A stretch of 64,000 nt of DNA from a virus (IMGVR_UViG_3300032167_000002:88286-152285), one strand, 5' to 3'. Positions 9,311 through 54,630 are shown, counted from the stretch's first letter. A program made the numbers and translations. Notes: a model not told the origin generated them from the sequence alone.

Positions 9311-9322
9311 GAGAGGAGAGGT

Positions 9323-24160: not shown

Positions 24161-26092
24161 ATGATTACTTCTATTAAAAATGCAGATTATTCATTCCTTT
24201 TTGCAGATGCTGGAAAGCTACTGTTAGAGCTGGATAGCCAGGGAAAATTGAAGACTCCTCTGCAGCAAGCTGAAAAAGACGAATTAAATCAATTCGATCG
24301 TTTCTCTTCTTTGGAGAAGTATTTTACCCGTTTGGGAGACTTGGTCGATAATGCTGATAACCCAATTAAATATTTAATGTTGCCTTTAGATGAACCTTGT
24401 TTAGAGGTAAATGCTAATACTAGAATTATTACTATTCCTGATGGTTTCAAGAAATACGGCGCTGGCGTTCAAGGTGACGTAATTGCCGAGACTTTGTTCT
24501 TACGCATTGACCGCTTCTTCGATTCTATGGACTTCATGATGACTGAGCCTTATATTCAGTGGAAGCTGAAAAATGGTGAGCAGGGCGCAACTCCTATTCC
24601 TTATATGGATTATGAGAGCGAGCATCATTTAGGTAAGTTGATTTTGGTATGGCCTTTAACTGGTGCAGTTACCGCACAAGAAGGTCCTGTTGAATTCTCT
24701 TTACGTTTCTTAAAGAGAGATGGCGACAAGGTTGTTTATAGCTGGAACTCTGTTCCTGCAACTATCACTATTAAGCAGGCATTAAAGCCCGTAGTTGATT
24801 ATGTTGAATATGATGATGCTGCTTCTTTATTTAAGCTAGCAATTGAAAATAGTGAGCATACTTCTGATAGTGATACTGTAGACCCACCTTCCTTCGATGC
24901 TCCTGGCTATTCTATTGGTTTTGAAAACAATGTTATTCATTTGGATAAGAATAACGCTGTAACTTTGGCTGGTCAAGCTTGGGTTGAAGGTCAGGGACAT
25001 TTGTCTTATGATTGGGAGTACAGTAACTTAACTGGCAATATTGTCGTTGCTGGTATCAATGTTCAAGGTGCTGAAACTACAGCTTTCAAGGAAACTGAAG
25101 ATGATGCTCCAGTTGAGTATAAGGTTTACTATGTACAAAACGCAAGTGCTACTCCTTATGGATATGAGGAATTGCCTCATAATCAGTTCGAAACCACTAA
25201 GGAAGAGAATATCGCTATTTATGAGCGTTATGCCATTTATAGAATTACTGAAAGCATTAGTCCTGCTGCTGATGCTCCTGGTGTTGTAACTGGTACTTAC
25301 AAGCTAATTGCTAAACATAAGCTAGGATTCCCTTCTGCTTCTAAGTCTTTGAGTGTTACTATTCCTGGTCCCGAGGTTTTGGAATTCGTTTCTGGTGATA
25401 AAGACGCTGATGAAAAAGCTTTAGGATTGCCTGCAAATGGTATTTTACTAGATGAAAATGATGGCTTAACATTGAATGTTGAAGTTAAGAATGATGGTGC
25501 GCCTGCTGCAGCTTATCAGTCTATGACTTATTTGTGGAAGAAGAATGTTAACGATGACAAAGAAGATGGCATGGTTGATGTTATTTCTCACACTTATGAT
25601 AATAATACCGAGGGTAAGATTGGTAAAGTCACTGATGATTTGACTTTAGAGACTGCTGAACCCGGCTGGTATAAGGTTTATGTTACTTCTATGTTGAACC
25701 GCGATGATATTGCTATTGAGAGTAATGTTGCTCGTGTGACTAGAGCTCCAGAAGCTCCAGTCTTGAAATATCCTGCTTCTTCTGAATATTCTAAGCAGCT
25801 TGAGGCTCAAGCATTCCCCAACCGCTTAGTTGAAATTGTGATTGAGCATGAGGCTTTTGATGAGCCTGTAGCTTTACACTCTGATAGACTAATCTATGAG
25901 TGGTACGATGAAGATAAGCTATTGACTCAGGACACTCCTGGTGTTAGCTTTGATGGCAATAAGCTATTGATTGATGGTAGTAACATTCATGGTGACGTTA
26001 TGTTCATCCATTGCTATGTAACTAATGAATTAAATGGTGCCTACTCCGCAAGAGAAGATGCTCACTCTGGTAACTTTGTTGTAAGTTTCTAA
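24161..26092 (+). CDS. Baseplate/tail structural protein (643 aa) with no amber codons. Its N-terminal domain is paralogous to the next gene (RIDRFFDSMDFMM versus KVDRFFDYMDL).
   Basis: Intact ORF with RBS AAAGAAAGGATG and TAATAA stop. Confidence 0.55.
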   Translation: MITSIKNADYSFLFADAGKLLLELDSQGKLKTPLQQAEKDELNQFDRFSSLEKYFTRLGDLVDNADNPIKYLMLPLDEPCLEVNANTRIITIPDGFKKYGAGVQGDVIAETLFLRIDRFFDSMDFMMTEPYIQWKLKNGEQGATPIPYMDYESEHHLGKLILVWPLTGAVTAQEGPVEFSLRFLKRDGDKVVYSWNSVPATITIKQALKPVVDYVEYDDAASLFKLAIENSEHTSDSDTVDPPSFDAPGYSIGFENNVIHLDKNNAVTLAGQAWVEGQGHLSYDWEYSNLTGNIVVAGINVQGAETTAFKETEDDAPVEYKVYYVQNASATPYGYEELPHNQFETTKEENIAIYERYAIYRITESISPAADAPGVVTGTYKLIAKHKLGFPSASKSLSVTIPGPEVLEFVSGDKDADEKALGLPANGILLDENDGLTLNVEVKNDGAPAAAYQSMTYLWKKNVNDDKEDGMVDVISHTYDNNTEGKIGKVTDDLTLETAEPGWYKVYVTSMLNRDDIAIESNVARVTRAPEAPVLKYPASSEYSKQLEAQAFPNRLVEIVIEHEAFDEPVALHSDRLIYEWYDEDKLLTQDTPGVSFDGNKLLIDGSNIHGDVMFIHCYVTNELNGAYSAREDAHSGNFVVSF

Positions 26093-26113
26093 TAACTTGA
26101 AAGGAGAGGTAAA

Positions 26114-26701
26114 ATGATTATTTCAACCGAAGAATATTATAAGTATCTTGCTTATATTCAATCAAACAATCGGCCAACAATTGCTATTTTACCTTCGTCT
26201 GAAAAAGTCTACAATATTGACTTAAAAACTCGTCAAATTGAAACGCCAGAGTATCTGAGTGTTGAACATGACCATAAATCTGAAACGGTCTATTTTAAAG
26301 TAGACCGTTTCTTTGATTATATGGACTTGTCACAAACAGTATGCATCGTTCAATATGTAACCGCAGATAATAAGGCTCGCATTTATGCAGTACCTTTTTA
26401 TGATGTTACTTCTTATGCTGACGAGGAAAAAATGTTGATTCCTTGGTGTATTGATGGCGGTGCAACTGCGGTCGCAGGTACAGTCCAATATTCAATTCGA
26501 TTCTACAAGGTTGATGAAGTAGGACAGCAATTTATTTATAACTTAAACACTCGTCCAACAAAGAGTAAAGTATTATATGGTATGGATGTTCAAAAAATTA
26601 ATCATGATTATGATTTAGCTCCTACTGTATATGATGAAATTATCCAAAAGTTGGATGAATTTAGTGAAGCTTTAGGTAGCTTCTGGGAAGAGTTATATTG
26701 A
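26114..26701 (+). CDS. Baseplate/tail protein (195 aa), paralogous to the N-terminus of 24161..26092.
   Basis: Intact ORF with RBS AAAGGAGAGG and TGA stop followed by a terminator. Confidence 0.55.
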   Translation: MIISTEEYYKYLAYIQSNNRPTIAILPSSEKVYNIDLKTRQIETPEYLSVEHDHKSETVYFKVDRFFDYMDLSQTVCIVQYVTADNKARIYAVPFYDVTSYADEEKMLIPWCIDGGATAVAGTVQYSIRFYKVDEVGQQFIYNLNTRPTKSKVLYGMDVQKINHDYDLAPTVYDEIIQKLDEFSEALGSFWEELY

Positions 26702-26709
26702 TAGTTTTA

Positions 26710-26741
26710 GGGAGAGATTTTATATCTCTCCCTTTTTTTTA
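26710..26741 (+). terminator. Rho-independent terminator (GGGAGAGAT...ATCTCTCCC plus T8).
   Basis: Hairpin plus TTTTTTTT, read directly. Confidence 0.65.
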
Positions 26742-26819: not shown

Positions 26820-27704
26820 GTGGCTGATTTAGCTTTACAGTTTAAGTAGGGTCAATATGCTTCAGGTAAGTTTGATAATTCAAATGCAAATCATTTGAAA
26901 CACGAAGCTGGTACCCTTTATCTTGCAACTAATGAAGATTATTCTGCTTATTTATTATTTGATGATGGCGTTAACTTTTTGAATATTATTCCATAGATGT
27001 TAGGTTATCACCACGGTGGTACTGGTGTTGATTTATCAAAGAATACTCCCGCAAATGCAGTTTTAATTCAGAATACTACTTTAAATGGTATTGCTAGTGT
27101 TGCAAGTGCAAAAGGTGCTTTTTATTCTACTGGAACAAATTTAACACCTCAATTTGGAACATTGCCTGTCAATGTTGGTGGTACCGGTATTACTACTGCA
27201 ACAGCTGGTGGTATTTTATATGGTAATGGAACTAATGCTTTCAAAGTAACGGCAAAAGGCGCAAAATCTGCTATCTTAGTCGGTGGTAATGGAACTCCCG
27301 CATTTGCGGCTCCCGCAGTTTCTTGGATTGCAGGTACAACTGCAGGTCCCACATTTAGATTTGCATTAAATGGAACAAATTTTGATGCAGTTATTCCTTC
27401 TGCTTCAACTACTGCTTCTGGTATTATTACTAATGATATTCAAACCATTGGAGGCCATAAAACTTTCAATGATGGTCTTACTATTAATGGTACTGCAAAA
27501 TTTAATGGTGGATTTTAGATTGTTGGTGGTATTGATGCATATTATAATTCTTCTAGTGACCAATCTGTCGGTTCATTAGAAGTTATTGGTGGTATTACCG
27601 CCACAATGAATATGCGTGTTGACGGAGGAGCTATTCAATTTAAAAAAGCTGGTAAAATTCAATATGATGATACAAAAGAATGTTTTAATTTTGTATTCGC
27701 ATAA
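26820..27704 (+). CDS. Tail-fibre protein (about 294 aa), Gly/Thr-rich. GTG start. TAG at 26847, 26994 and 27516 read through. Contains IQTIGGHKTFNDGLTING.
   Basis: RBS GAGGGAAAGGAGG 9 nt before GTG 26820. Frame 3 is open to TAA 27702 apart from 3 TAG. The track ORF 26997..27518 is the middle piece. Confidence 0.55.
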
Positions 27705-27716
27705 GGTGGTGGCAAT

Positions 27717-30134
27717 ATGAGTTTACAAGTATGGTTACCATTAAATAATCATATTAATAACCAAGGATTAAATACTATTCGTTTTAAAAGCTCAAATGTT
27801 TCTTACACTCAAGGTAAGTTGGGCTATTGCGCTAGTGGCACCATTCAAGGAACTGCCGCAGAATTAAATTCAACAGATGGTTTTTGTTGTAGTTTCTGGT
27901 GGAATATTGCCAATGGAGATAGCTATAATATTAAATTTCCTATTACTAACACAGGTATTGATGATATTTTTAATATGGCAAAAATGGATTATACTTCCAA
28001 TTATGCTATTAAATTACATTGCAATAATAACAAACCTCAAATGATTTGGATTTATGATACTCGTTCTACTTCTGGAGTATGGGAGCTTGGAACCTGGAAT
28101 CATTATGTTATTAATGTTAATAATGGAGATTTCGGTGTATAGGTAAAAGTATTTGTAAATGGAGCTTTAAAACATCAATACAATAGCGCTGATTATAATT
28201 TTACATTACGCCCTGGTACCATTAGTATTAGTGGAACAGCAAAAATGAATGATTTTAGATTATATGACCATCCACTTTGTCTAAAAGAAATTGATGAATT
28301 AAGTAGAGGTCTAATGCTTCATTATCCTTTACGAGATAGTACTTTACAAAGCACAACTAATTATTTATTGTATCCAACCCCTGGTAGTAGAGTAAGTGCT
28401 GGATGGGACTCTTCTTTACATCCAAATGCTATTAATGTATCTGGATTTACTGCAGGGTATAACAGTGGTGTTGATTCACCAACAATTGGTTATCATGCCT
28501 ATTGGAATGTTATAGATGACGTGCCTACAATGGTGTTTCCAAATTTAAATTCAGCATATAATTATAAAGGCCGTTGGTTAGGAATTTCTTCATGGGGTAC
28601 TGTTAATTTAGCGTAGGCGATTGGTAAAGGTAATAAATATACTATTTCTTTTGAAGCTAAAAGTGATATAAAAGGTAAAACAGTACAGTTTGGTTTATAT
28701 TATAGAAAAAATGGAGCAACTTCAAATAACTTCCATGATGGACAACATTAGTAGAGCTTAACTACAACTTGGAAAAAATATTCATACACTTGGACTCTTG
28801 GACAAGACGGTGATAGTTCTAATGTGGGAGCAGTATATATGTATGGTCATTATGGTATTGAAGGAACTGCTTATGTAAGAAATATTTAGTTAGAAATTAA
28901 TGACCATGCAACAGATTATGTTTCTGGTAGTAGAGAAGCTTCTAAGGTCTATGACTGTTCGGGTTTTGGACATCACGGTCGTGTAGTAGGAGCAGTATCG
29001 ATGATGCCAGATTCTAGTCGCAATAAATATTCTGCATACATCACAGATGGTCGTAGTAATTATATTGCAAGTGATACTATGATATTTCCAAAAGATAGTA
29101 TAACTATGAGTTGCTGGGTTAAAGGTAGTAACGCAGGATATAGTAATTATCATATTCCATTAAGCTTTGGTAGTGCTAATTATGAATTTTCATTGGAGGG
29201 AACGACTGGTAAATTCCGCGCTGGATATGTTATTAGTGGAACTCGCTAGTGCGTAACAACAAATGGTACTACTATTGATGGGAAATGGCATATGATTACA
29301 TCTACATTTGATGGAACAACTATTCGTAGATATGTTGATGGAATACCTTTAACATCTACTGCGGCCGCAGGTACTTTATCCGGTGGTACTGGTAATTTAT
29401 TGGTTGGTAATTATAATGGTACTACATATGGTAATAGTAAATTATATACTAGTGATGTTAGAATTTATGCTACAGCACTAGATGAACTATAGATTAAAGA
29501 ATTATATTTAAATGGTGCCACTGTAGATAATGGTGGTAATGTTTATGCTTATGAGTTCACTGAAGAGGGCGACAACTCAGTCTTTAAAGAAGGAGTAGTT
29601 GACTTTGAGAATTTTATTGAGTATAATATTAATAAGATAATGAGATATGATGGTGATTTGTGGGTACAAATTTTACATCATAATAATAGAGCTGGTACTA
29701 AGTATTTTACACCATCTAATGCCGCCAATCATACAGAAGAAGACTTATATAGTAGGCTTTATTTAACTGAATAGTTAAGAGGAGCTGATGGTGCATTTGA
29801 ATTTTTAGTTTTGCAACCTGATGATGATGCAGGTACTGTATATAGATGGATTCAAACAAATAATCCAAACAATACAACTTCTGTAACAGGATTTAAAAAC
29901 ATTTCTAATATGAGTGGAGGATTAGTAAAATGCTCGGGTAATACTCATTGGGCAATTTCAACCTCTACTGGAAATTGGTGGAATGCAGTGGGATGCTGGA
30001 CCGCTTATAATGGAGGCATTCCTGGATTTGGTAAAAAAACTATTAAAGGGTCTTTAGATGTGTATGTAAAGTTAGATAAAAGAACAAGCTTTTTAATCGA
30101 CTCTATTGAAACTCAAAACTATTATGAATTTTAA
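27717..30134 (+). CDS. Large tail-fibre/receptor-binding protein with LamG-like (concanavalin-type lectin) domains, about 805 aa. Eight in-frame TAG at 28140, 28614, 28749, 28752 (adjacent TAG-TAG), 28887, 29247, 29490 and 29772. Paralogue of 32793..35219.
   Basis: Frame-3 ORFs 27717..28142, 28245..28616, 29001..29249, 29292..29492 and 29811..30134 are joined through TAG only. The 28617..29000 and 29493..29810 gaps were verified codon by codon. LamG signature DFRLYDHPLCLKEIDEL / DVRIYATALDEL. TAA stop at 30132. Confidence 0.65.
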
Positions 30135-30223
30135 CTTGGACTAATAAGATTAAAGTTCATGAAATAAACATCATTATTATTGAGAATAAATCTCAAAATT
30201 GAATTGAAAAGGAGATTACAATT

Positions 30224-30445
30224 ATGTTAAGAATGGACAATATGAATGTCAACTTTAATGGCGCTAGCGTAGTTGACGATGTTGTAGTCGCAAATATGAG
30301 CGCAAGTTATTCTGGTGCTGAGGTATATTTCAACATGACTATTATTGACTTGGATGGTTATAATGGTAACAAAGAAGTTGTTGAATTAGACTTTGATAAT
30401 TTCAAGGATAAAGCCTTAGAGGGCATCAACGGAATTGCACTCTAA
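30224..30445 (+). CDS. Small protein (73 aa). Possible fibre assembly or accessory protein.
   Basis: RBS AAAAGGAGA. TAA stop followed immediately by a terminator. Confidence 0.45.
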   Translation: MLRMDNMNVNFNGASVVDDVVVANMSASYSGAEVYFNMTIIDLDGYNGNKEVVELDFDNFKDKALEGINGIAL

Positions 30446-30453
30446 TAATTCAT

Positions 30454-30490
30454 AGGGGTGAGGATTTATCCTCACCCCTATTTTTTTTTG
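30454..30490 (+). terminator. Rho-independent terminator (AGGGGTGAGGA...TCCTCACCCCT plus T9).
   Basis: Read directly from the sequence. Confidence 0.7.
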
Positions 30491-30524
30491 ATATATAGAT
30501 TTTGAAGAAAAGGAGTGAAAAATT

Positions 30525-32777
30525 GTGGCACAATTAAGAGATTTAATTGTTAATGGGCCTTCTCGTTTTCTTGGAGTATCTACATATAATGAAGATGTAC
30601 TTCTAAATAAAGGTGCAATTGCTTATGATGTTATTATACCAGGAGAAACCTTAACCTATAATTTAGGTACAGCAGATAACGCTTGGTTAAATATATATGG
30701 TGCAAACCTAAGAGCATCAACAGCAGTTATTGTTACTGGCAGTGCAGAAGCGACAGCCGCAAGTTCTGGAGCAATTCAAGTAACTGGCGGTATTTATGTA
30801 GCTAAAAAATCTTTGTTTGGTAGTGATATTTATTTAGGCTCAACATCTTATTATTTAAATGGCACAACAAGTAAACTAAATGGCTTAACAACTGCCAGTA
30901 CTATTACTTCTGGCGGTAATGTTGTTCCAAGTGAGACTAACAAAAAGAGCCTTGGTACTTCTAGTTTGCGTTGGGCTAACTTATATATTGTAAATGGTAA
31001 CGCTTCTGGCTCACTATCTGTGTCTGGAACTGTAACTTCTACTGGCGGTTTTATTGGAAATTTAACTGGCAATGTTGTTGGTAATGTAACTGGTGATGTT
31101 ACAGGTAATCTAATTGGTGTTGCTGATAAAGCTAATCGTTTAACCAAATCAGGTGGTAGTACTGATAGACCAGTTTATTTTACTACTGATGGAATTCCAT
31201 AGCCTACTACTTATCGTATGGCTGGCACTAATGTAACAGCTACAACAGGAATTGCGATTGGCAGTGCCACTAATACTGGTATTTGGTATGTTAATGATAC
31301 TTCTGGTATTCTTGGTATTAGTGATGGTGTAGCTATTGTAAATAAATATAACGACTCTTGGATTACTCAAATTTATCAAGACTATCGCACTGGTCAACTT
31401 GCGGTTCGTGGTAAAAATAATGGTACTTGGCAAGATTGGAGAGTTATTCTTGATGAAGATAATTTTACTAATTATCTTGATGGTCATTATAATGGTAAAT
31501 ATGTTTTAAAAACAGGCGATACCATGTCTGGCCCTCTAGTTATTCAAACCAGTGAAAATAAATTAACAATGAATACTAGTGGAAGTATTACTACTGAAGT
31601 TACAAAAAGCGGTGGATGGGCACGATATATTGATTGGAAATAGAAAAATACATCTAGTGATACTGCAAGCGTAAAAGCAGAAATGGGTGCCTATGGCGCA
31701 GGAGGAACTTTAAATTATTGGTATGTTGGTACTGGTTGGGAAGAAGAAAATACTTGGTTATAGGTTAATGCAACTGGCACCACTGTAAAAGGAATTCTAA
31801 ATGCAAAAGGTCATGTTTATTTAACAGGCTCTCACGCTAGTTCTAGTACTGGTAATACAACTCAATTAGTGTTTGGTACACCAAGTGAAAATCATGTCGT
31901 ATTATCTTCTAATGATAATGCATTAGTTATTAATCCAACTACTTCTTCCACCACAAATTAGATTGTTTTATATTTAAATAGTAAATCTAAATTCCCTAGT
32001 GGCTTAGACGTAGGCACAGCTTCTTCTTTTGCTTCTGATGTGAATATCGGTGGTAATTTACAAGTTACTGGCTCTATTAAAGGATTAAGTACTTTAGCCA
32101 TTACTGGCGCCACAACTTTAAGTAATACTTTATCTGTAACTGGAGCTGCTTCATTATCAAATACTTTAACTGTATCAAAAGTTACTACCCTAAACGGAGG
32201 TCTTATCGTTAGTGGTAGACCTTATGGCTCTGGTGATGATGAAGGTATTGTTGTTGCACCTGCAGCTAACGGATATGCAGGTATTACTTTAGGTAGTGCT
32301 TCTGGTATTAGAAGTACTCTATATTTAACACCAGCTGATAGAACACATAGAGCAGTTTGGCGTTACTATAATGGTACAACCAATTATGATGTTACGCATC
32401 CTGAAACTAGTGGTGAATTGGTGGTACATACCGCTGATACAGCCGCAGGTAATGCTAGTGTTCCCGTTTATATTGCTGCTTCTGGTGTCGCGACCGCAAT
32501 TACCTGTCTTGAACCTTCAAAAGGTGGTACTGGTAATACCAACTTAGTGAGTGGACGTTTGGTTTATACTGAGGCTTACAACGGTTCAGTCAGAATGACT
32601 TCTGGCGGCAATCATTATGCAAATGCTACTAAGGTTGCTATTAATTCAACTGCTGCCCCCACAGGAGCTTTCCATGTGCAAGGTGATACATCTATCAACG
32701 GAGCGATTACAGTTGACTCTAAGGTAAAATTTGTGTATAATAGTACCGATGAAAGTTTAGATTTTATATTTATTTAA
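30525..32777 (+). CDS. Tail-fibre shaft protein (about 750 aa). GTG start. TAG at 31200, 31641, 31761 and 31959. N-terminus (MAQLRDLIVNGPSRFLG) is paralogous to the N-terminus of 35239..38766.
   Basis: RBS AAAAGGAGTG. Frame-3 ORFs 30525..31202, 31218..31643 and 32040..32777 plus two sub-60-aa segments are joined through TAG. TAA stop at 32775. Confidence 0.6.
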
Positions 32778-32792
32778 GGAGGAGATTAATAT

Positions 32793-35219
32793 ATGAGTTT
32801 ATTAATATGGTTACCATTACATGGTAATTTAGAAAACTATGGTTCTTCTCCAATAAAATTTAGTTTAAATACTACTGGTGGCGGTGTTGCAGCTGCCACC
32901 AGTGGTGGAAAAACAGATATGCGCTGTTATCAACGAACAGCTATTAATACAGTTTCTCATATTACTAGTGATTCCACAATTGATTTAAATAAAGATTTTA
33001 CTATGGCATGTTGGTGTTATCCAACCACTCCTGGTAATGCTACTTCTGCAAATGGAATTCTAACGAATCATAATCATTCTCATAATAGTGATAAAGGTAG
33101 TGGTTCAGGAATTACTTTAAAATATAGTGGTAATACAACTTGTTATATGAGTTGTAATACTTCTTCTTCTACTGGAAGAACATATTATTCATATTATGGA
33201 ACTACAAACATCTATGGAGCTTGGCATCACTTATGTTTAACCTATAAGAAATCTACTAAAACTTATCGTTTATTTGTAGATGGTATTTGCGAAAAGGAAT
33301 TTACTTGCGAGAATGTATCTGCTGCAAATAAATTTAATATATTTGATTGGTCTGTCGGGCATTCAAATAATGGGTCATATAGACCCGCCTGTAAAATTAA
33401 TGATGTGCGAGTATATGATGAATGTTTATCCAAAAGAGAAGTGAAATTATTAAGTCAAGGTTTAGTTTTACATTATAAATTAGATGGCGGAAATGCGAAT
33501 AATTTATTAACTAATTCTTATACGATTGGAAATAGACAAACCTCTTTTGATAAGGTCTATGGATTTCCTGTCTGTAGTGCAGATAATAGTGCAGGCACTG
33601 GATATAAAGATTTTGCTTCTTGGGGAGGACACTCTGTTTCTATAAATGAAGTATATACAGCAAGTTTCTTTGCTAAATCATCTACTTCAAGTACTTTAAC
33701 TATGTACTTTTATAATAATACATCTGGCGTGGTTCAAGTTTCTAATATTAAATCATCTGAAGGACATAATAAAAGCGGCAGTGATGGCAATTGTCCTCTA
33801 TCATTAACTCCTCAATGGAAAAAATATACAGTAACTTGGACTTTTGCAGCAAGCGGAACAACTACAAATAAAACCTTGCTATTTAGACTTGCGGCAGGTG
33901 GTAAATGTGATATAGCTTTACCAAAATTAGAAAAAGGTTCGATTGCTACCCCTTATTGCCCAGCATTAAGTGAAACATTTTTTAATGCTGCTGATGATTG
34001 TAGTGGATATGGTCGTAATGGCACAACAGTTGGTAATATTACTTTTAGCTCTGATACTCCACGCTATGCGGCAAGCTCTGTGTTTGATGGTTCAACCACA
34101 GGCATTAATTTACCAATTAAAGATTTAATGAAAGCAGTATTGAGTGATAAGTGTACTATTAATTTTTGGGTAAAAGAATCAAATACATCAAGTAGAAGTA
34201 TTTACTTTGGCGGTTATAGTGGTAGTAATTTTAATATTGAACAAAATGTAACATCTTTCCGAGTATATTGGAATGGTAGTCCAGATTTATCAGTAGGTAC
34301 AATTACTAATAACGAATGGGCTATGTGGACTGTTACAACAGATATTGCTACTGGTATTAAAATATATAAAAATGCAACTTTAGTAAAAACTCATACGGGT
34401 GCTCTTACTAATATTGCTTCAAGTTTTACAAGAGATTTTAATATTGGTAAAGATAGTAGAACTGATGATACAATGATGGAAGGTAAAATGTCAGATTTTA
34501 GAATTTATGCTTCTGTATTGTCTGCTACTGATATTAAAGACTTATATCAAACTGCAGCGTCAATAACTAAAGAGGGTTCTGTATAGGCTTATGAATTTAT
34601 TGAAGAGCCTGATAGTTTTGATATTAAAATGACTAAATAGGGTATGTTAAAAGCTGCTGACATTTCTGAAATTGGATATATTGGCGGTATGAAAGTTAAA
34701 GTGCTATCCGACAATAGTGCTTGGGCACGTATTCATTGGCTTGACGTGACTACGGATAAAACTTGGTTTACTGCTAGCGAAGTTGCCTTTTGCAATTAGG
34801 CTAATCGTTTTAGTCGAATGGGTTTAGTAGACCATTTTAAAGTAGATGGTAAATATGAGTTTATGTTAACTTATCCGTCTTTGTCAAATTCTTTATATAA
34901 TAGATGGACACAAACAAGCTCTCCAAATGCAAGTACTGTAACTGGTTTTACTGCTATTACAACAGCATGGAATAATCATAATGCAGGCATTCGTAAACAT
35001 GGTTCAGCTTGCGTCTATAACTGTGACACTGGCTCAACTTGGTTTGCTCCTATTGGACAGAAATCTGCTTGGGATAGTACTAAATTTATTCCTGCCGCAG
35101 ATGGCACTTCACAAACTGAAACAGAATTGTGGGTAAGAATTGATACATTACCCAACTTAACAAAAACTAGTATGCTTGATAAAGAATATTTACAAGCATT
35201 TAAGATATATGAAATTTAA
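32793..35219 (+). CDS. LamG-domain tail-fibre/receptor-binding protein (about 808 aa), paralogue of 27717..30134 (MSLLIWLPL... N-terminus, NDVRVYDECLSKREVKLL and DFRIYASVLSATDIKDLY LamG signatures). TAG at 34584, 34638 and 34797.
   Basis: RBS TAAGGAGGAG. Frame 3 ORFs 32793..34586 and 34818..35219 are joined via TAG-only segments. TAA stop at 35217. Confidence 0.65.
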
Positions 35220-35238
35220 GAGAGAAAGGAGTATTTAA

Positions 35239-38200
35239 ATGGCACAAGTAAATGATTTACTCGTCCTTGGAAAAGCTAATTTTTTAAATGAGATAACTTC
35301 TTCTCAATTATTAAGAGCCTTTGGCGGTATTGCAGTAGATAGTTCAACTGAAGAATCTACATCTTTACCTTATTTTTTAGGTATTAAAGCTTTTGCTGAT
35401 GGTGGCAATGTTGTTTGGTCTAGTCCCACGAATACAGCTAATGTAATTAGACTTAATGCTTCTGGAACTTGGCCTATTAGTATTAGTGGTCTTGCCGCAA
35501 AAGCAACCGCTGATGCAAATGGAAGTACTATCACTTCTACTTATGCGAAGTTAAAATCTTATAATGATATGATTCATTCTACAAATGAATATACATTTGC
35601 ATCTCCGGCTTATTCTGGAGCCATTTGGATTAACTATCGAACTGCAAGTGGAGCAACTGATGGTAATATTACTACTTATAATTTTGGTAATGGTAAAGGC
35701 GGAACTGCAGGAGTTACTCTTGTGGCAACAACTTTTAATGGCAATGCTACCAGCGCTAATTATGCAACTTCTGCTGGTAATGCAAACACTTTAGATAATA
35801 TTGATTCTACTGGATTCTTAAGATATTACAATAGTAATACTGCAATATCATCTACTGAAGTTGTTAATACTCCATCTTATGTACATACGGTTAGTACAAC
35901 AGGTGGAAATATTACAACATCTGTGAAACCCTCTGGCATGAACAATGCATGGGGACTTATTCACTTACATACTCATACTGGTAATTACGCTACCTAGTTA
36001 GGTTTCGGTGGCACAACTGGAAATTTATATATGCGCAATGCTTATAATTCTGCAACTTTTGGTAGTTGGAAAACTATTCTTGATTCTGGAAACTGGACAA
36101 GCATTGTCGATGGAAGATATTTAAAATTATCAGGCGGAACAATGACTGGCTTAGTGTCATATAAAACCACAAATTATACTTCTACTCCAATGGCAATATA
36201 TGATGACGGAACAAATTATGGACATAGCTTAGTTATTGGTGCTGGCGGCACTACTTATATTGGAGCTGGTGAGGCTGCTAGTACTTTATATTCAACAAAA
36301 CTAAAAGTTACTTCTACTGAGGATTTAATTCTCGGTGCAGACAGTAATATTAGATTTCATACGAATGCAGATAATGCAACCACCACGAATGGAGTAACTC
36401 TTAATACCTCCAATTATTTTTATCCATAGACAACTAACACTGGTAGTGTTGGTACTTCTGGTAATAAATGGGGTTCCATGTATGCCACAACCTTTTATGG
36501 AGCTTTAAGTGGTAATGCTACAACAGCTAGTGCTTTAACTCCGATTACTACAAATGATTTAGCTTCTAGTAGTACGACTAAAAGACGCATTTGGTTTTGT
36601 TATGATAATAATACAACAGGTCGACCTGCTTATGATGATAGATTTACAATTCAAACTTCTACTGGAACATTATTTGCTCCAATTTTTAGTGGTAATTTAA
36701 GTGGTAATGCAACAACAGCAACTACTGCCAATGCCTTAGCAAGTACTGGTTATGGTAATGGTAATTTTACTTGGTTTCAAACTTCTGGAGAGTTCGCTGG
36801 CAATAGCGGATGGGCATCTTATTTAGTTTCTAATCATGGAGATGGCTCTAGTTATTATCATTAGATTATTGCTATACCATTTTGGGATCCTCCAAAATAT
36901 CGCCGCATGGAGGGTAATACTAGTACCGTTAAAGGCTGGTATGATTTTATTACTGATGAAAATTATACTACCAAGTTAGATGCTCGATATTACACCGAAG
37001 CAGAAGCCGATAGCCGTTTTGTAAATGTAACTGGCGATTCCATGAGTGGAACGTTAAGTTGGAGCGGAAATATTTCAAGTTTAAATTTCCGCACTGGACA
37101 TAGTGATTATGATGGTGTAATTAGTTATCAAACAAGTGGTAATGAAGCTATGTTATTTACTACTAAAAACGTAGTTACGAGTTTTATGTTTGTTAATGGT
37201 GAAGACACTATTACTAATATGGCTGCTGATAGATGGACTAAAATAACTCCCGGTTTACAAATTAAAAATAATTGTGTTGCGATTGGTAAATTAATTGCTA
37301 ATGGTAGTACTCCCAGTTATAAACTAGAAGTAGCTGGAATGACATATTCTTCAGGTCGTTACTTATCTGAAACAGTACCTTCTTCTTGGATTGATGGTTA
37401 GCGTTATAATAACGGTGCTTATAATGTAAATACTTATTCTAATGATGGCAGCTATAATCCTTGGATACGTGCAACTAATAGTCATGCTAATGTTGCTAAG
37501 TGGTTTAGTTTTGGTACATTAGGCAAACAATTTTATTGGATTGGTTCTACTACGAGTCGTACTGAAAATAGTTATGATAAAGGTATGTCATTTAATGTTG
37601 AATCTGGTTTATTATATGCTCCAATTGTTGGTGGCGATAGAATTTATACTGGCTATGATGCTGGAGTAACTGGCTCTGTATCTTGTTCTAATTGGTTCCG
37701 TTCAAGTGGCGCAACAGGTTGGTATAATGCTTCTTATGGTAATCATTTATACCCAAATACTGTAACAGGTTATGGCGGTTTTATGATGTATGGTAATGTT
37801 AGAGGTGGATATGAAGGCATTATTCTTGGTAATAGTACTAGTTATATGACATTGATGTCAAGTGACCCTCATCAAGGATTGTATAATGAAGCAAAAGGAC
37901 GTTGGATTATTTATTATAATAAAACTAATAATCAAACTTCTGTAAATGGCGCTTAGACTTCAGCAACAGCTTTTCCATTTACTATTTTTGGTGCAACTTA
38001 TATTGATGGTCGTTTGGTTGTAAAAGGCAATGGTTCTTCTTATAATGAAGGTATTCGTGTTTTACCTGCATCAAATGGATGGTCTAACTTATTCTTCTCT
38101 GGAACGAATACTGTAGAAGGCACTCATGATGGCGGTTGGTTAATCGGTCGTAGGGGAACAGCTGGAAGTACTTATGGTGCAGTTGGAGATTTCTGTATTG

Positions 38201-38766
38201 AAAATAATAATAGTGTTGGAAGTAATTTAACGTTAACTAAAGCTGGTATTTTAGTTAATATTGGACCAATCTTTGGCTATAGATATAAACAAACTAGTAA
38301 TGGCGCTGCTTTTATGTGGGATAAACCTGGTAGTAATTACACTGGTATGGGCGCTAATGATTCTAGTGACACTATTCAATTTAGAGCTTGCGATATCGCT
38401 GGTAATTGGGTAGATTATAAACAACATTGGAATTTCTATGGTGATTTATTTGCTTATGGCGCAAGATTTGCAAATAGAGGTACTTCAACATCTACTTCTG
38501 CTTATAGTGATTCAGCAGTTGAAATTCGTGAATACGGTTTTGGCGGCGCTCAATCTGATACTTGGGGAGTTGCTCCTCGTTTAAGTTTCCATTGGAGTGG
38601 ACGTGTTGCAGCGCAAATAGGTCTTGCTTCTAACGGTAAATTATATATCAATAATAATACTCAAGGAAGTACTACATTCTTACAAATTGTCGGTATGACT
38701 GGCTATGGTACTGCAGCCCCATCTGGTGCAGCTCCTGCTGGTTCAGTTTATTTTAAATATAGTTAA
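35239..38766 (+). CDS. Very large tail-fibre protein (about 1175 aa). TAG at 35995, 36427, 36862, 37399 and 37954. N-terminus is paralogous to 30525..32777.
   Basis: RBS AGAGAAAGGAG. Six frame-1 track ORFs (35239..35997, 36031..36429, 36478..36864, 36907..37401, 37585..37956, 38014..38766) are contiguous through TAG only. TAA stop at 38764, then a terminator. Confidence 0.65.
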
Positions 38767-38779
38767 CTAATTAATTGTA

Positions 38780-38824
38780 TACCTGAAAGATGCTTAAAAA
38801 AGTATCTTTCAGGTATTTTTTTTT
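38780..38824 (+). terminator. Rho-independent terminator (TACCTGAAAGAT...ATCTTTCAGGTA plus T9) closing the tail-fibre operon.
   Basis: 12-bp inverted repeat followed by TTTTTTTTT. Confidence 0.75.
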
Positions 38825-39773: not shown

Positions 39774-40496
39774 ATGTTTAATGGAAAAGGTTACAATTTA
39801 TCTGATATCGCTGCTGTAACTGGTAATCGCAATGGCGATGGTATGTGGGGCGATAATGGCTGGTGGATTATCCTGTTATTCTTGTTCGCAGGATGGGGCC
39901 GCGGCGGATTTGGCGGCTTTGGTGGCGGCTATGAAGCACCTTGTGCTACCCAAGCTGATGTCCGTGCCGCAGTTGACCAGCAAACTTTAATTTCTAAATT
40001 AGACAACCAGACTTATGGTTTGGCAGATTCTACTTACGCATTAAATAACTCTATTATGAGTGGTTTCCATGGAGTAGATACTGCTGTTTGCACTCTTGGC
40101 TACAATATTCAGAGTGGCTTTAACACTTTAGGTCACCAGATTAGTGATTGTTGCTGCGAGACTGGCCGTGCAATTGAGCGTGGCTTTGCAGAGACTAACT
40201 ATAATATGGCAACTCAGGCTTGCGACACTCGTCGCGCAATCGCAGACAGCACCCGTGACATTATTGATGCTAATAATGCTGGTGTTCGTTCTATCTTAGA
40301 CTTCTTGACTAATGATAAGATTGCTACTTTGACTGCTGATAACCAATCTTTGAAGTTCCAGGCTTCCCAGGCCGCACAGAACGCTTACTTGGTAAATCAG
40401 TTACGTCCATGCCCAGTTCCCGCTTATACCGTTCCTAATCCCTACTGCTGCAATACCTACTTTGGTGGATGCGGCAATGGTTTCGGTACTTTCTAA
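39774..40496 (+). CDS. Membrane-anchored protein (240 aa) with an N-terminal TM helix (WWIILLFLFAGW), a Gly-rich linker, and a Cys-rich C-terminal domain (CCCETG...PCPVPAYTVPNPYCCNTYFGGCGNGFGTF).
   Basis: Intact ORF with RBS AAGGAGGA. Hydrophobic segment and cysteine clusters seen by eye. Confidence 0.55.
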   Translation: MFNGKGYNLSDIAAVTGNRNGDGMWGDNGWWIILLFLFAGWGRGGFGGFGGGYEAPCATQADVRAAVDQQTLISKLDNQTYGLADSTYALNNSIMSGFHGVDTAVCTLGYNIQSGFNTLGHQISDCCCETGRAIERGFAETNYNMATQACDTRRAIADSTRDIIDANNAGVRSILDFLTNDKIATLTADNQSLKFQASQAAQNAYLVNQLRPCPVPAYTVPNPYCCNTYFGGCGNGFGTF

Positions 40497-40515
40497 TCTA
40501 AAGGGGGTTTAATTT

Positions 40516-40935
40516 ATGGAAATTATTGCTAATGCTCTTCAGACAGTTCCAGCAAATCAAAATGTTTATTTCACTGATACTGTGATTTGTGGTAATGCTA
40601 CGATTGGTCATCGTGATGATAGTGGTTTAGTTACTCTAAGAGGTTTAACCGACCAATGCCGGGCTAGATTCCGTGTTTCTTTTGGAGCTAACATTGGACT
40701 ACCAGCGGACGGAACAGTTGGCCCAATTTCTTTAGTTATTGCTATCAATGGTGAGCCTGTACGTGCTACTACTATGACAGTAACCCCAGCGGCAGTTGAG
40801 CAATTTTTCAATGTATATGCTTCTTTATATGTCGATGTTCCTCGTGGATGCTGTGTAACTATTAGTGTTCAGAATATTACAACTGATGATGTTGATGTTC
40901 AAAATGCTAATTTAATTGTTGACCGCACCGCTTGA
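40516..40935 (+). CDS. Small beta-rich protein (139 aa), possibly a C1q/TNF-like (BclA C-terminal-domain-like) trimer-forming module.
   Basis: Intact ORF with RBS AAAGGGGG. The resemblance is impressionistic. Confidence 0.4.
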   Translation: MEIIANALQTVPANQNVYFTDTVICGNATIGHRDDSGLVTLRGLTDQCRARFRVSFGANIGLPADGTVGPISLVIAINGEPVRATTMTVTPAAVEQFFNVYASLYVDVPRGCCVTISVQNITTDDVDVQNANLIVDRTA

Positions 40936-40949
40936 AAGGAGGAATAAAT

Positions 40950-41585
40950 ATGCATGAAGAAAGATTAAAGCATATGAAAGAAACTCTAATGTGTGCTGTT
41001 GAAATGCAGCTATGTGATTTAGGTGAGGTAGATACCAAAGAGCTTGGAGAAGCTATTGATATGATTAAAGATTTAGAGGAGGCAATCTACTATTGCACCG
41101 TCACTGAAGCTATGAAAGGCAATGGCTCAGAAATGGAGTTTGAAATGAAAAAAGGCGGCCATCACCAAGAGGAAAATGGTGACAGCCGCATGTATTATAG
41201 TGGCTCTCGCTATCCAATGATGTACGCCGACGAGGGACGTCGTCGTAGAGCTGATGGAACCTTCTATAATGACCCAATGTATATGGACGGCGGGTCTGGA
41301 AATGGTACCAGTTATATGGATAACGGAACTAGTCATATGGACCGTGGAAACGGAACCATGTATCGCGATGAGCGTGAGGGCCGCAGCTACAATAGCCGCA
41401 GAATGTATATGGAAGCCAAAGATATGAAGAGAGATAAAGCTACTCAACTTCGTGAGTTAGAGAAGTATATGCAAGAGCTATCTCAAGACATCACTGAAAT
41501 GATTGCGGACGCATCTCCAGAGGAGAAAGCATATCTTGAAAAGAAGATTACCGCATTGGCTTCTAAAATCGGTCAAATGAAATGA
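40950..41585 (+). CDS. Hypothetical protein (about 211 aa) with a low-complexity Met/Tyr/Gly/Asn-rich repeat region (YMDGGSGNGTSYMDNGTSHMDRGNGTMYRDE) flanked by helical ends.
   Basis: RBS AAGGAGGAATAAAT plus ATG 40950 (the track starts at 40932). TGA stop overlaps the next start. Confidence 0.5.
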   Translation: MHEERLKHMKETLMCAVEMQLCDLGEVDTKELGEAIDMIKDLEEAIYYCTVTEAMKGNGSEMEFEMKKGGHHQEENGDSRMYYSGSRYPMMYADEGRRRRADGTFYNDPMYMDGGSGNGTSYMDNGTSHMDRGNGTMYRDEREGRSYNSRRMYMEAKDMKRDKATQLRELEKYMQELSQDITEMIADASPEEKAYLEKKITALASKIGQMK

Positions 41586-41893
41586 TTATCAATGGAGTGA
41601 GATGGCGAGTCCGAATGGTCTCGCCATCTCATCCAATGCTACTAACCCCTTGGATGACTCATGCTCTTGGAGTTTGTGATAAAGTTACGCAAACTATTTA
41701 CATAGACAAGACGCTCAAACCAGCTAAGGTTAAAGAAGTGCTATGCCACGAAATTGTTCATGCTTGTATGTTTAGCTACGCAGTAGATTTATCATACGAT
41801 GAAGAGGAAATGGTAGCAGAATTAATGTCTAAATATGGAGACGAGATAATCAAATGGTCGAATAGAATTTATAATGGAATTAAAATGAAATAA
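41582..41893 (+). CDS. Small putative zinc metallopeptidase (103 aa) with an HExxH motif (CHEIVHACMF). Minimal ImmA/IrrE- or SprT-like protein.
   Basis: HEIVH motif seen directly. ATGA overlap with the upstream gene. TAA stop, then terminator. Confidence 0.45.
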   Translation: MIINGVRWRVRMVSPSHPMLLTPWMTHALGVCDKVTQTIYIDKTLKPAKVKEVLCHEIVHACMFSYAVDLSYDEEEMVAELMSKYGDEIIKWSNRIYNGIKMK

Positions 41894-41940
41894 AAAAAGG
41901 GTCGTATATGATTTATTCATATACGACCCTTTATTTTTTT
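41893..41940. terminator. Bidirectional rho-independent terminator (A7-GGGTCGTATATG...ATATACGACCC-T-rich) separating the + late module from the - module.
   Basis: Perfect 11-12 bp stem flanked by an A-run on one side and a T-run on the other. Confidence 0.75.
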
Positions 41941-42538
41941 ATGTGCAAATAGCCCACCCAGTAGATGTACCATCTTTGTTAATATATGGAATAGCAACTT
42001 TCCATCCATTAGCAGTTCCATCAACATTGACATATGGTATTGCACTCTTCCATCCATTGGCAGTTCCATCAATATTAATGCGAACTAATCCTCCACCATT
42101 AATCACTGTACCTCCATAAGTAGAGCTATCTCCTCGGTTTCTGATAATAACAATAGTAGGATTTGATTTACGAACAAAATGAAATCTAAAAGTTACTGTT
42201 GACCCAGCGGCTACATATACTCCTCCAAATGTAAAAGTTTTTTGTTCCGTATTATAATAGTTTCCTCCGCTAGTTTTATTGCTTACAGTAATTGTATTGG
42301 ACGTATGCGATGTTCCGTTAGAATCAGTAACAGTTACATAAACATCATATGCATATCCATATCCAGTAACAGTATCTCCCTAATTGTATGTTCCATTACC
42401 TGAAGCAAGACCTATTCTGCATGCAGTTATTAGTTGAGGTGTAGAACCAGTATTTTTATATTTGAGTAAATTTCTACTATAAGTAGCATCTATGCCCTAA
42501 TAAGAAAAACTCCAATCACTATGAGTACTCCATCCCAT
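41939..42538 (-). CDS. Hypothetical protein (199 aa) with two TAG read through. C-terminal tandem repeats of about 13 aa (DGTANGWKSAIPYVN / DGTANGWKVAIPYIN / DGTSTGWAI), possibly a wall-binding module.
   Basis: Not in the track because it is split by TAG. Translated manually from the reverse complement. ATG at rc(42536-42538) and TAA at rc(41939-41941), 600 nt in frame. Confidence 0.5.
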
Positions 42539-45443: not shown

Positions 45444-45482
45444 ATCAAATCTCTCCTTTATCTCATTTATACTAATATTATA

Positions 45483-45965
45483 TCAATTTTTTTTAGATAA
45501 GTCAATTATTCTCTGATTACGTGAACCTCTCATTTCAAGAGTAATATCACGCTCTTCTTCAATATAAGGACCATCAATTAGGTAATCCGCAAGCTCTAGC
45601 GCATGCCGCACTTGAGGATGACTTGCGTGTTGTAGTTGTTCATATGTATAACCACTCCAGATATATATCTTTGCTCCTGGAACTTTCTCTTTAACCTCTT
45701 TGACTACCAAATAGGTAAGGAAAGCATTTTCGTCACAAAGAGGTTCACCGCCCATGATACACAAATTTCTCTGTATACCCTGGGCGGTCAGTCCGGAAAT
45801 AATCTCATTTAAAGTCCCAGTAGTAAATTCTTTTCCTCGGTTGAAATCCCAAGTTTCTGGATTATGGCAGCCTTTACATCTATGCGGACAGCCTTGTGTA
45901 AAAAAGCTCACACAAAGACCGGGGGCCGCAGAAATATCATTTAAAATTAAACCACTATAATTCAA
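45483..45965 (-). CDS. nrdG: Anaerobic ribonucleotide reductase activating protein (radical SAM, CPHRCKGCHN).
   Basis: CxxxCxxC motif near the N-terminus. Adjacent to nrdD. Confidence 0.8.
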   Translation of the reverse strand: MNYSGLILNDISAAPGLCVSFFTQGCPHRCKGCHNPETWDFNRGKEFTTGTLNEIISGLTAQGIQRNLCIMGGEPLCDENAFLTYLVVKEVKEKVPGAKIYIWSGYTYEQLQHASHPQVRHALELADYLIDGPYIEEERDITLEMRGSRNQRIIDLSKKN

Positions 45966-48878: not shown

Positions 48879-49102
48879 ATGTCAACTTCCTCCTCAAATT
48901 CGTATTCTAATTTGCCGGGAAGTTCACCCTCCCAGAATGTTGCATGACCATCGCAATCGGGATTCTCACACTTATAAGGATATTGTGCTGGATAAGTAGT
49001 GAGACAAATGCCAGTGGGGATTAACTCCCCACCGCACTTATCACAAATTGCTCTGGTTGTATAAATATTTTTTACCTTATATCGTTTAAGCATCTTCCTC
49101 AA
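48857..49102 (-). CDS. Small zinc-ribbon protein (81 aa; CDKCGG...CENPDCDGH).
   Basis: Track ORF. Cys pairs seen by eye. Confidence 0.5.
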   Translation of the reverse strand: MRKMLKRYKVKNIYTTRAICDKCGGELIPTGICLTTYPAQYPYKCENPDCDGHATFWEGELPGKLEYEFEEEVDICTKLLP

Positions 49103-53054: not shown

Positions 53055-53095
53055 ATCCTTTCACTTATTTATTATATAATAATTATACCAAAATT
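53055..53095 (-). promoter_or_regulatory. Sigma70-like promoter for - strand transcription: -35 TTGACT (rc 53084..53089), 16-nt spacer, extended -10 TGGTATAAT (rc 53062..53070). Lies upstream of the polymerase gene.
   Basis: Near-consensus hexamers read from the reverse complement. The same motif recurs at 54601 and 61904. Confidence 0.55.
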
Positions 53096-53112
53096 TTTAT
53101 TATAAGTCAACC

Positions 53113-54578: not shown

Positions 54579-54599
54579 TTACATTCACCTTTTTATTTT

Positions 54600-54630
54600 T
54601 ATTATACCAAAATTTATATTAAAAATCAAC
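54600..54630 (-). promoter_or_regulatory. Sigma70-like promoter (- strand): -35 TTGATT (rc 54624..54629), 17-nt spacer, extended -10 TGGTATAAT (rc 54601..54609).
   Basis: Read from the reverse complement. Identical architecture to the 61904 promoter. Confidence 0.5.

Follow-up and report, generated by a model that had tools for sequence, protein, structure and literature searches.

The long tail fiber of phage T4 consists of the proximal trimer gp34, the monomeric knee-cap gp35, gp36 and gp37, which are encoded in the order in which they are assembled. The C-terminus of gp34 is expected to contact the monomeric gp35, and this junction is structurally unresolved (PMC5537660). Here we describe five consecutive plus-strand genes (positions 26820 to 38766) on a 64,000-nucleotide stretch of viral DNA, IMGVR_UViG_3300032167_000002:88286-152285, which corresponds to bases 3894-67893, reversed, of the Joint Genome Institute (JGI) contig Ga0257089_10000596 (129,946 bp). 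This whole stretch is hereafter called the window, and positions are counted from its first nucleotide. Three of the genes encode proteins of the trimeric-fiber type (294, 750 and 1175 amino acids), and these alternate with two genes for putatively monomeric multi-lectin proteins built around LamG domains (805 and 808 amino acids). From the conserved order of such genes and the motifs at the ends of their products, we consider it probable that the five proteins form one serial, twice-jointed, T4-like fiber in which the LamG proteins act as lectin-bearing knees.

Other phages carry several receptor-binding proteins, such as TSP1-4 of CBA120, gp63.1 and gp66 of G7C, and those of PhiK64-1, which are joined by conserved N-terminal adapter modules and whose distal domains are horizontally swapped. 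In those systems gp10-like XD domains are used and the tailspikes are attached to the baseplate, whereas the links between the fibers described here would be serial and made via the LamG proteins. In KVP40-like vibriophages, the long-tail-fiber region is a recombination hotspot from which at least seven fibers are predicted (PMC12028318).

Recoding of TAG as glutamine and SPbeta/Phass-like phages of ~130 kb have already been described, and phages of the Phass-1 group have this genome size, a giant tape measure protein, the TAG recoding and two to three suppressor tRNAs (PMC10607447). The phage studied here resembles this group and the crAss-like and other code-15 gut phages in carrying in-frame TAG codons in structural and other genes, and it resembles Phass-1 in its ~130-kb genome, ~3100-amino-acid tape measure, DnaE-type polymerase and Bacillota/Clostridia-like gene content. 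The relation is nevertheless distant, as evident from a DnaE that is only ~38% identical to that of Phass-1, as it is to SPbeta YorL and to the proteins of Enterococcus EF1-like phages. Furthermore, a tblastn search of Phass-1 with one of the LamG proteins (g32793) gave no match, and thus no LamG connector is detectable there; the receptor-binding proteins of Phass-1 are described as being of the pectate-lyase type (PMC10607447).

Five genes that are open when TAG is read as glutamine

Under the standard bacterial code none of the five genes is open, and the interval from 26820 to 38766 breaks into more than 20 short open reading frames (ORFs), at four to nine pieces per gene. Once TAG is treated as a sense codon, five uninterrupted ORFs appear: g26820 (26820..27704; 294 amino acids), g27717 (27717..30134; 805), g30525 (30525..32777; 750), g32793 (32793..35219; 808) and g35239 (35239..38766; 1175), for a total of 3832 codons. 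The in-frame stops that they contain (3, 8, 4, 3 and 5, in gene order) number 23 and are all TAG. TAA and TGA never occur internally, and TAA is the terminal stop in every case. An earlier note on this DNA, made from the sequence without database searches, had proposed five genes of about 3800 codons and given coordinates for four of them, which prove to be exact, but its translations ran through the 23 TAG stops and the recoding went unnoticed.

The same pattern extends over both strands of the window, where 42 gene models together hold 67 in-frame TAGs and none ends in TAG; verified models stop at TAA (32) or TGA (9). Because reading TAG as sense was a premise of the ORF calling, the absence of TAG terminators amounts to a consistency check and not to independent proof. 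The identity of the amino acid comes from two related strains, L002, a 97.7% identical variant, and L003, which is 80-90% identical. When TAG sites are compared between the window and these strains in both directions, the corresponding codons are CAA (14), CAG (2), AAA (2), GAA (2) and TAT (1). Because these substitutions are mainly to the glutamine codons CAA and CAG, we conclude that TAG encodes glutamine (code 15) in this phage. Pfam domain matches and a 38-member alignment of the LamG family also run across in-frame TAGs. Moreover, TAG-bearing genes in the window include those for RecJ-, RuvC- and nucleotide-kinase-like proteins, and the recoding is therefore a genome-wide feature.

The many pieces obtained under code 11 would also be expected of decayed or misassembled pseudogenes that are cut by genuine stop codons. 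We reject this explanation, whose probability we regard as negligible, on four grounds. The interruptions are solely TAG, more than 50 sample blocks gave independent assemblies of the same sequence, homology and predicted folds continue across the TAGs, and TAG and CAA/CAG replace one another between strains. A practical consequence is that the standard code splits a 12-kb host-range module into about 30 fragments, and the public JGI gene calls are such fragments. Surveys of receptor-binding proteins that ignore code 15 will miss it.

To express any of the five proteins, amber suppression by a tRNA(CUA), presumably encoded by the phage, would be required. A related TAG-recoded phage contig of 128 kb, L018, carries a 93-nt tRNA with the anticodon CTA (14772-14864; an amber suppressor, labeled Pyl by ARAGORN) just downstream of its LamG gene and holin, with seven more tRNAs nearby.

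Codon usage in the window falls into two classes. TAG-bearing genes use CAA and TAG almost to the exclusion of CAG, whereas TAG-free genes are rich in CAG. The latter include those for DnaE (49086-53048) and NrdD (46016-48223), a gene for a 2683-amino-acid protein (15797-23848), and the genes at 24161-26701 and 39774-41893. The late structural block has TAG-free genes at its center, and thus the absence of TAG is no simple marker of early genes; they may be acquisitions from standard-code phages.

Two paralogous multi-lectin proteins

The products of g27717 and g32793 can be aligned from end to end, with 24% identity (E 4e-38). As the earlier note had proposed, they are true paralogs, but ancient ones: a recent duplication conflicts with the greater identity of each protein to proteins of other phages (37% for g27717 and up to 75% for g32793). 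Two stretches of each protein match the Pfam family Laminin_G_3 (PF13385), with E values of 2e-21 for g27717 and 2e-30 for g32793 and scores of 77 and 106.6 bits relative to a curated cut-off of 27.6. In g27717 a match to CBM_4_9 (E 1e-6) is also present, and both its Laminin_G_3 and its CBM_4_9 matches span in-frame TAGs. The signature D[FV]R[LIV]Y that had first suggested multiple LamG-type modules closes each LamG domain, and it is invariant in the 38-member alignment (D204, R206 and Y208; D568, R570 and Y572).

An AlphaFold2 model of g32793, computed with the 38 homologs in the alignment, has a predicted local distance difference test (pLDDT) score of 85.9 and comprises four beta domains. 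These are predicted to be LamG1 (residues 1-230; 32793-33482), a CBM-like sandwich (residues 250-385; 33540-33947), LamG2 (residues 405-590; 34005-34562) and a C-terminal domain (residues 596-808; 34578-35216), all on the plus strand. The layout of g27717 is the same, with LamG1 followed by a CBM_4_9-like domain, LamG2 and a C-terminal domain at about residues 596-805 (nt 29502-30131). Foldseek matches the jelly-roll sandwiches of the g32793 model with a probability score at its maximum (1.00) to the LamG-type receptor-binding domains of botulinum toxin Hc, neurexin LNS and laminin LG, and it also finds arabinanase domain 4. The closest viral structure is that of a 1152-amino-acid LamG protein of Vibrio phage phi-Grn1, and the middle sandwich resembles both the extension of the Lactococcus major tail protein and phrog_3791. 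The fold, the CBM_4_9 match and this likeness of the middle domain to a tail extension suggest that the LamG proteins bind carbohydrate. A host-recognition apparatus that is multivalent, as the earlier note envisaged, and that binds carbohydrate is plausible; the switching that the note considered as an option is taken up below.

A search with g32793 recovered 157 homologs, mostly of 780-850 amino acids, on contigs of 50-340 kb. LamG1 begins at residue 1 in every one of the 120 homologs examined, and none of these is a fusion of a fiber with a LamG protein, or of a LamG protein with a fiber that begins with MAQ, in one ORF. A sequence search of the PDB with g32793 returned no match. Scans of IMG/VR with g32793 or with the gene at 26114 as single queries gave no close relative, and relatives were reached only with the family alignment.

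A recurrent order of fiber and LamG genes

The five genes follow a strict grammar, in which a fiber protein ending in ..SLDFIFI is followed by a LamG protein starting MSL..WLPL, which is in turn followed by a fiber protein starting MAxL.DL.V.G. Fiber segment 1 (g26820) ends in CFNFVFA (27681..27701; ...DDTKECFNFVFA), which falls in the motif class [LIVMF][DNEKVGS][FL][IVSTKQN][FY]x{1,2}$, and is followed by g27717, which starts MSLQVWLPL. A 73-amino-acid ORF and a terminator then precede fiber segment 2 (g30525), which starts MAQLRDLIVNG and ends in SLDFIFI (32754..32774; ...NSTDESLDFIFI), a motif of the same class. It leads to g32793, which starts MSLLIWLPL, and finally to g35239, which starts MAQVNDLLVLG and has no DFIFI-type C-terminal end.

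The three fiber proteins are otherwise diverse. The N-terminus of g26820 belongs to the 'FK.G...G.LY...D' class that is also present in T4 gp37, a class motif that supports its GTG start (AGGAGG lies 8 nt upstream), and its central 150 amino acids match other fiber proteins. A GTG start is also used by g30525, whose residues 390-550 resemble T4 gp37 (E 2e-4) and whose last 80 amino acids resemble the tail fiber ORF346 of Vibrio phage ValKK3 (E 0.009). Segments of g35239 match the ValKK3 long-tail-fiber distal subunits ORF348 and ORF349 (E ~1e-7) and a gp34-like protein of Cronobacter phage S13; its N-terminal ~170-190 amino acids are constant, and the shaft and tip beyond them are mosaic and vary between strains. 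Neither Pfam nor PHROGs yields a match for g26820, g30525 or g35239, and sequence searches of the PDB with g35239 and g30525 also gave none. Fiber homologs form a highly mosaic set of 650-2000 amino acids, some with an endosialidase-chaperone domain.

The MAQ start that g30525 and g35239 were noted to share gives a weak BLAST alignment (41% identity over 49 amino acids, E 0.05). In an ungapped comparison of their N-terminal 20 residues, the BLOSUM62 score is 45, relative to -14.8 +/- 10.2 for a null of internal 20-mers from the same two proteins; the fraction of the null that reaches 45 is 2e-5. Furthermore, the start MAx[LV][NKR]DL[LI]VxG recurs in dozens of otherwise different fiber proteins. 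For these two reasons the N-terminal likeness exceeds compositional bias, to which the earlier note had allowed that its similarities might be due.

To survey the grammar more broadly, 79 IMG/VR loci gathered with the LamG family alignment were scored together with L013, L015, L017 and L018. A genetic code was assigned to each IMG/VR locus by a coverage heuristic, which is not proof (52 standard, 24 TAG-sense and 9 TGA-sense). Of the LamG genes with an ORF upstream, 87 in all, 60 are preceded by the C-terminal motif. Viewed from the other side, the motif occurs in only 60 of 743 distinct ORFs; a LamG gene follows directly in 51 of these, and in the remaining nine it comes after a short gap or a small ORF, as judged by eye and not computed. 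Likewise, 32 of the 41 ORFs with a MAx-type start directly follow a LamG-family ORF, and the other nine are found in the same loci, a few kilobases downstream of a LamG gene.

C-terminal ends identical or nearly identical to SLDFIFI precede LamG genes in L013, L015, L017, L018, ValKK3 and many IMG/VR loci. A single unit is present in L013, whereas L015 carries three LamG genes that alternate with MAQ fibers ending in ..VDLIFI and ..LNFVFV. The standard-code prophage of Vallitalea okinawensis (L017) has two units beside its amidase, with a fiber ending in ..SLDFVYVG. In several phages the LamG core and the C-terminal domain are separate, and an ORF of ~200 amino acids for the latter precedes the MAQ fiber. 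Thus the idea of a repeated unit of fiber and LamG genes holds, and the unit is conserved in many phages, with the qualification that its LamG paralogs are ancient.

Likeness to T4-type long tail fibers

The order of proximal fiber, connector and distal fiber genes is found in the window, in L013, L015 and L017, and in the phages ValKK3 and S13. In S13, the proximal and distal fiber genes are separated by one annotated 'long tail fiber proximal connector', and the N-terminal 320 amino acids of its product align with T4 gp35 (E 7e-7). When compared by hhalign, the C-terminal domain of the LamG family profile matches the last 170 amino acids of this S13 connector with very high confidence (E 8e-16), and the C-terminal domain of g27717 matches the same gp35-like protein (E 1e-7). 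The correspondence with T4 and S13 includes a non-fibrous protein that is encoded between successive fiber genes and, if our reading is correct, a gene order that equals the order of assembly. Moreover, the C-terminal motif of the fibers bears a motif-level resemblance to the C-terminal end of gp34, segments shared with gp37 and long-tail-fiber distal subunits are present in g30525 and g35239, and some downstream fibers of relatives have gp36-like N-termini. For example, the gene after the LamG gene in the Vallitalea prophage starts MADLRGGTTIGG, like T4 gp36 (MADLKVGSTTGG).

There are also clear differences. The connector core, made up of LamG/CBM/LamG, shows no detectable relation to gp35; the unit is iterated, with two putative knees here and one to at least three in relatives; and the phage has a siphovirus-type, amber-recoded genome of a Gram-positive lineage, whereas T4-like phages are myoviruses.

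ValKK3, a Schizotequatrovirus that is KVP40-like, provides a second point of contact. Its ORF347 is a member of the LamG family (hmmsearch E 7e-87) with an N-terminal domain that is 40% identical to that of g32793, and it lies between the tail fiber ORF346 and the distal subunit ORF348. The N-terminus of ORF346 is gp36-like, and its C-terminal end is ...NSTSESIDFIFS (..SESIDFIFS). Unlike the LamG proteins of the window, ORF347 (1152 amino acids) has no C-terminal domain of their kind, and ValKK3 is a standard-code myovirus of marine Gammaproteobacteria. No description of the role of ORF347 was found in the searchable literature. Phage structural proteins with LamG domains are common; an account of the iterated fiber-LamG-fiber grammar with its end motifs, or of a tie to the T4 knee position, could not be found in the searchable literature.

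The strict adjacency of LamG genes to the C-terminal fiber motif would also suit a chaperone that recognizes this end. Chaperone genes typically follow fiber genes, and the LamG proteins might accordingly be non-virion factors for fiber-specific assembly or adhesin maturation, like T4 gp38 and gp57 or lambda Tfa. We consider this improbable. At about 800 amino acids, with three lectin-type sandwiches, the proteins are far larger than known fiber chaperones, and their vibriophage homologs and phrog_26670 are annotated 'virion structural protein'. In addition, their middle domains vary between strains as exposed receptor-binding parts do, and their C-terminal domain is common to the gp35-like structural connector.

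Strain variation in the fiber genes

Comparison with L003 reveals alternating blocks of conservation and loss. Conservation extends from upstream of the fiber genes through LamG1 of g27717 and ends at nt 28338; the L003 counterpart of this gene lacks the CBM region and encodes 612 instead of 805 amino acids. A second conserved stretch spans nt 29057 to 33514 and includes g30525 and LamG1 of g32793. Conservation is then lost up to nt 35118 and returns in a block (35118-35727) that comprises the last ~33 amino acids of g32793 and the first ~165 of g35239, after which it is lost again. L002 diverges after nt 35768, within g35239, and for eight database proteins the similarity to g35239 is confined to its first 168-188 amino acids, at 72-95% identity. 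The conserved blocks span the junctions between genes, and in L003 the parts between the blocks are replaced or deleted. Each putative junction pair therefore stays intact when middle and distal parts are swapped. The diversity arises from this exchange of modules between strains, by recombination at domain boundaries.

Two side observations concern g35239. Its counterpart in L002 is split into an ORF of 198 amino acids and a new ORF. Alleles in L002 (20504-end), L003 (18612-end), P0122, P0124, P0130 and P0141 carry a precomputed Pfam match to Shufflon_N (PilV constant region), which the window allele does not have.

These Shufflon_N matches might be taken to favor switching inside one genome, whether through a diversity-generating retroelement, through an invertible segment of the shufflon type, or through regulated read-through of TAG codons, given that low suppression could in principle yield truncated products. 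We regard such switching as highly improbable. When the whole window was searched for repeats of at least 30 nt, none of the direct or inverted kinds that retroelements or invertible segments require was present. A Pfam scan of 30 proteins of the window (those of the five fiber and LamG genes, of six more plus-strand genes and of 19 of the 20 minus-strand models) yielded no reverse transcriptase, invertase, resolvase or recombinase domain, in agreement with the earlier impression that no retroelement reverse transcriptase or invertase is encoded in the window. The TAG codons, for their part, are scattered inside domains and not placed at domain ends, and the occurrence of TAG in the RecJ-, RuvC- and kinase-like genes marks it as a feature of the genome's code. 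Switchable recognition is thus unsupported.

A putative serial fiber with two joints

We interpret the region as a candidate distal host-recognition module, in which the five products would assemble head-to-tail in gene order, as do T4 gp34, gp35, gp36 and gp37. The C-terminal strand of a fiber (...SLDFIFI or ...CFNFVFA) would dock on the invariant LamG domain (MSL..WLPL) with which the next protein begins, and the C-terminal part of the LamG protein would hold the N-terminus (MAQ..DL.V.G) of the following fiber segment. The two knees would expose lectin and CBM domains toward cell-wall glycans, and the last segment would serve as a strain-variable tip. Host range would then diversify through recombination of middle and distal modules, with each junction pair kept together. 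Both the physical contacts and the stoichiometry of this chain are deduced from conserved gene order and end motifs and should be read as predictions.

The main alternative is that the locus encodes at least two independent fibers, each anchored to the baseplate, with LamG proteins as terminal receptor-binding proteins. One fiber would consist of g26820 tipped by g27717, a second of g30525 tipped or branched by g32793, with g35239 separate, and the fibers would offer alternative specificities. The layout of the transcription units bears directly on this point. An intrinsic terminator (26709..26733; 10-bp G+C stem, T8) closes the preceding unit after the gene at 26114-26701. The first fiber unit holds g26820, g27717 and the small acidic 73-amino-acid ORF (30224..30445), which has no TAG, a good ribosome-binding site and a conserved counterpart in L003, and which gave no Pfam match. 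A strong terminator (30452..30481; 13-bp stem with 7 G-C pairs, T9) separates it from the second unit, which holds g30525, g32793 and g35239 and is closed by another terminator (38779..38816; 17-bp stem, T9). All of these elements are on the plus strand.

Several observations weigh against a single serial fiber, beginning with the 73-amino-acid ORF and the strong terminator that part g27717 from g30525, because of which the two units could be separate fibers. Only about one third of LamG genes are directly followed by a MAx-type fiber gene. In L018 the LamG protein comes last and is followed by a holin, and L063 has several LamG genes in tandem, and thus LamG proteins can be terminal adhesins. 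The analogy with T4 is also limited: an hhalign comparison of the family profile A1 with T4 gp35 shows no significant similarity (E 0.08, with a probability score close to nil), the homology shared with S13 is confined to a C-terminal extension that T4 gp35 does not have, and the fiber ends of the window resemble those of T4 only at the level of motifs (MAQL.DL.V.G; ..SLDFIFI relative to ..TVKFEWVE at the gp34 C-terminal end). Finally, with respect to the proposed amber suppression, ARAGORN finds no tRNA in the window, in ~7 kb past its left end or in 10 kb past its right end (L010, L099 and L100), and an Rfam scan of the window has no tRNA or ribozyme match. Given the negative profile comparison, we rejected the idea that the LamG proteins are gp35 homologs.

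Separate fibers would further agree with the terminal position of LamG in the relatives L093 and L095 as well as in L018, with the many MAx-type fiber proteins whose genomic context is uncharted, and with the branched multi-receptor-binding-protein systems of phages such as CBA120 and G7C. We nevertheless judge this arrangement to be unlikely, if a good deal less so than the other alternatives considered. In the loci examined, genes with a MAx-type start almost always lie after LamG-family genes, directly or a few kilobases downstream, and one of this kind, g30525, comes after g27717. The blocks conserved between strains join the C-terminal end of a LamG protein with the N-terminus of the next fiber, and the synteny parallels T4-like long-tail-fiber clusters. 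A set of five parallel fibers with LamG as the sole receptor-binding tip, the picture suggested at the outset, fits less well than a connector or knee role, which we prefer because both the gene order and the end motifs are conserved.

With regard to the small ORF and the tandem LamG genes, three further details were noted. The corresponding junctions in L013 and L015 lack the 73-amino-acid ORF. An N-terminus similar to that of its product, MLNINDTNINYNATS, is present in L066, where it follows a C-domain ORF. The four tandem LamG paralogs of L063 (623, 574, 580 and 558 amino acids; 2031-9642) are followed by a separate 187-amino-acid C-domain ORF, and in this IMG/VR phage the LamG portion of the grammar is thus extremely expanded.

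Other genes of the phage

The gene content of the window points to a ~130-kb, SPbeta/Phass-like, siphovirus-type gut phage, whose host is presumably a member of the Bacillota. Encoded in the window are a DnaE-type polymerase, NrdD/NrdG, DnaB, a PIF1/UvrD-type helicase, RecJ, RuvC and a tail lysozyme, and precomputed Pfam domains include the SPbeta families YorF and Phage_SPbeta_YorH. Small neighboring genes are 55-61% identical to those of fecal phages and 41% identical to those of Butyrivibrio virus Ceridwen. A megablast search with window positions 20000-44000 against cultured and deposited phages gave zero matches.

Just upstream of the window are genes for a 3091-amino-acid tape measure (PhageMin_Tail) and a 2547-amino-acid SH3-bearing protein. 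By the usual length rule, a tape measure of this size corresponds to an exceptionally long tail. The ORF at 100-2892 (plus strand) is the C-terminal 930 amino acids of the SH3_3 protein, which follows the tape measure in L010.

Three more fiber-like genes lie upstream on the plus strand (10911-12392, 12407-13924 and 13942-15663), and consequently the host-recognition arsenal reaches well past the interval that was flagged initially. Two of them have an N-terminus of the 'KF.RG / KFLHG ... G.LYF' class, as do g26820 and T4 gp37. The adjoining TAG-free gene at 15797-23848 (plus strand) has an N-terminus of the 'FK.G' fiber class and a BspA-type leucine-rich repeat (LRR_5) near its C-terminus. 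Its homologs at this position have 2543 amino acids and LRR_5 in L013 and, where the assignment is by position only, 2760 amino acids with the end ..SLDFIFA in L018.

Downstream of the fiber genes, the ORF at 39774-40496 (plus strand) encodes a glycine-rich, membrane-like protein (phrog_16490) with GGFGGFGGG and a C-rich tail. Proteins of this family are also encoded beside fiber and LamG genes in L018 (9302-9934, close to the holin) and downstream of the LamG gene in L078, and the protein may be a member of the lysis cassette. A minus-strand gene for a 199-amino-acid protein (41939-42538) has two TAGs, a C-terminal DGTANGWK.AIPY.N motif in three copies and no family match; it adjoins a bidirectional terminator (41896-41932) at the point where two gene blocks converge. 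Lastly, an AT-rich direct repeat of ~40 nt, TTATA..ATTATACCAAAATTT.TATTA.AA.TCAAC, is present at 45467-45506, 53072-53111 and 54591-54630. Two of these copies closely precede the starts of minus-strand genes (45443 and 53048), and the repeat is probably a promoter or regulatory box of the replication block.

Implications of a possible junction code

If the LamG proteins are knees, the end motifs would predict which proteins share one fiber and how many segments this fiber has. The same motifs would mark swap points that spare assembly, which would help to predict host range and to engineer phages that target Gram-positive bacteria of the gut. In addition, the LamG family would make the knee junction, which is structurally unresolved even in T4 (PMC5537660), tractable by comparison.

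We tentatively suggest, as a possibility that we consider less likely than not, that these ends constitute a portable junction code. In such a code, a short C-terminal strand of the form ..[ST].[DE].[SC][LIV][DN]F[IV]F. would enter the N-terminal LamG domain, and the ~200-amino-acid C-terminal domain, whether fused or separate, would receive MAxL.D..V.G. The code would then allow phages to concatenate any number of segments and knees, with one to at least three units seen so far, and it would be common to gut Bacillota siphophages, a Clostridia prophage and T4-like marine myoviruses, across three genetic codes. If this is true, the junction code would amount to a general, engineerable Lego system for host range, and a functional equivalent of the gp35 knee would have been identified.

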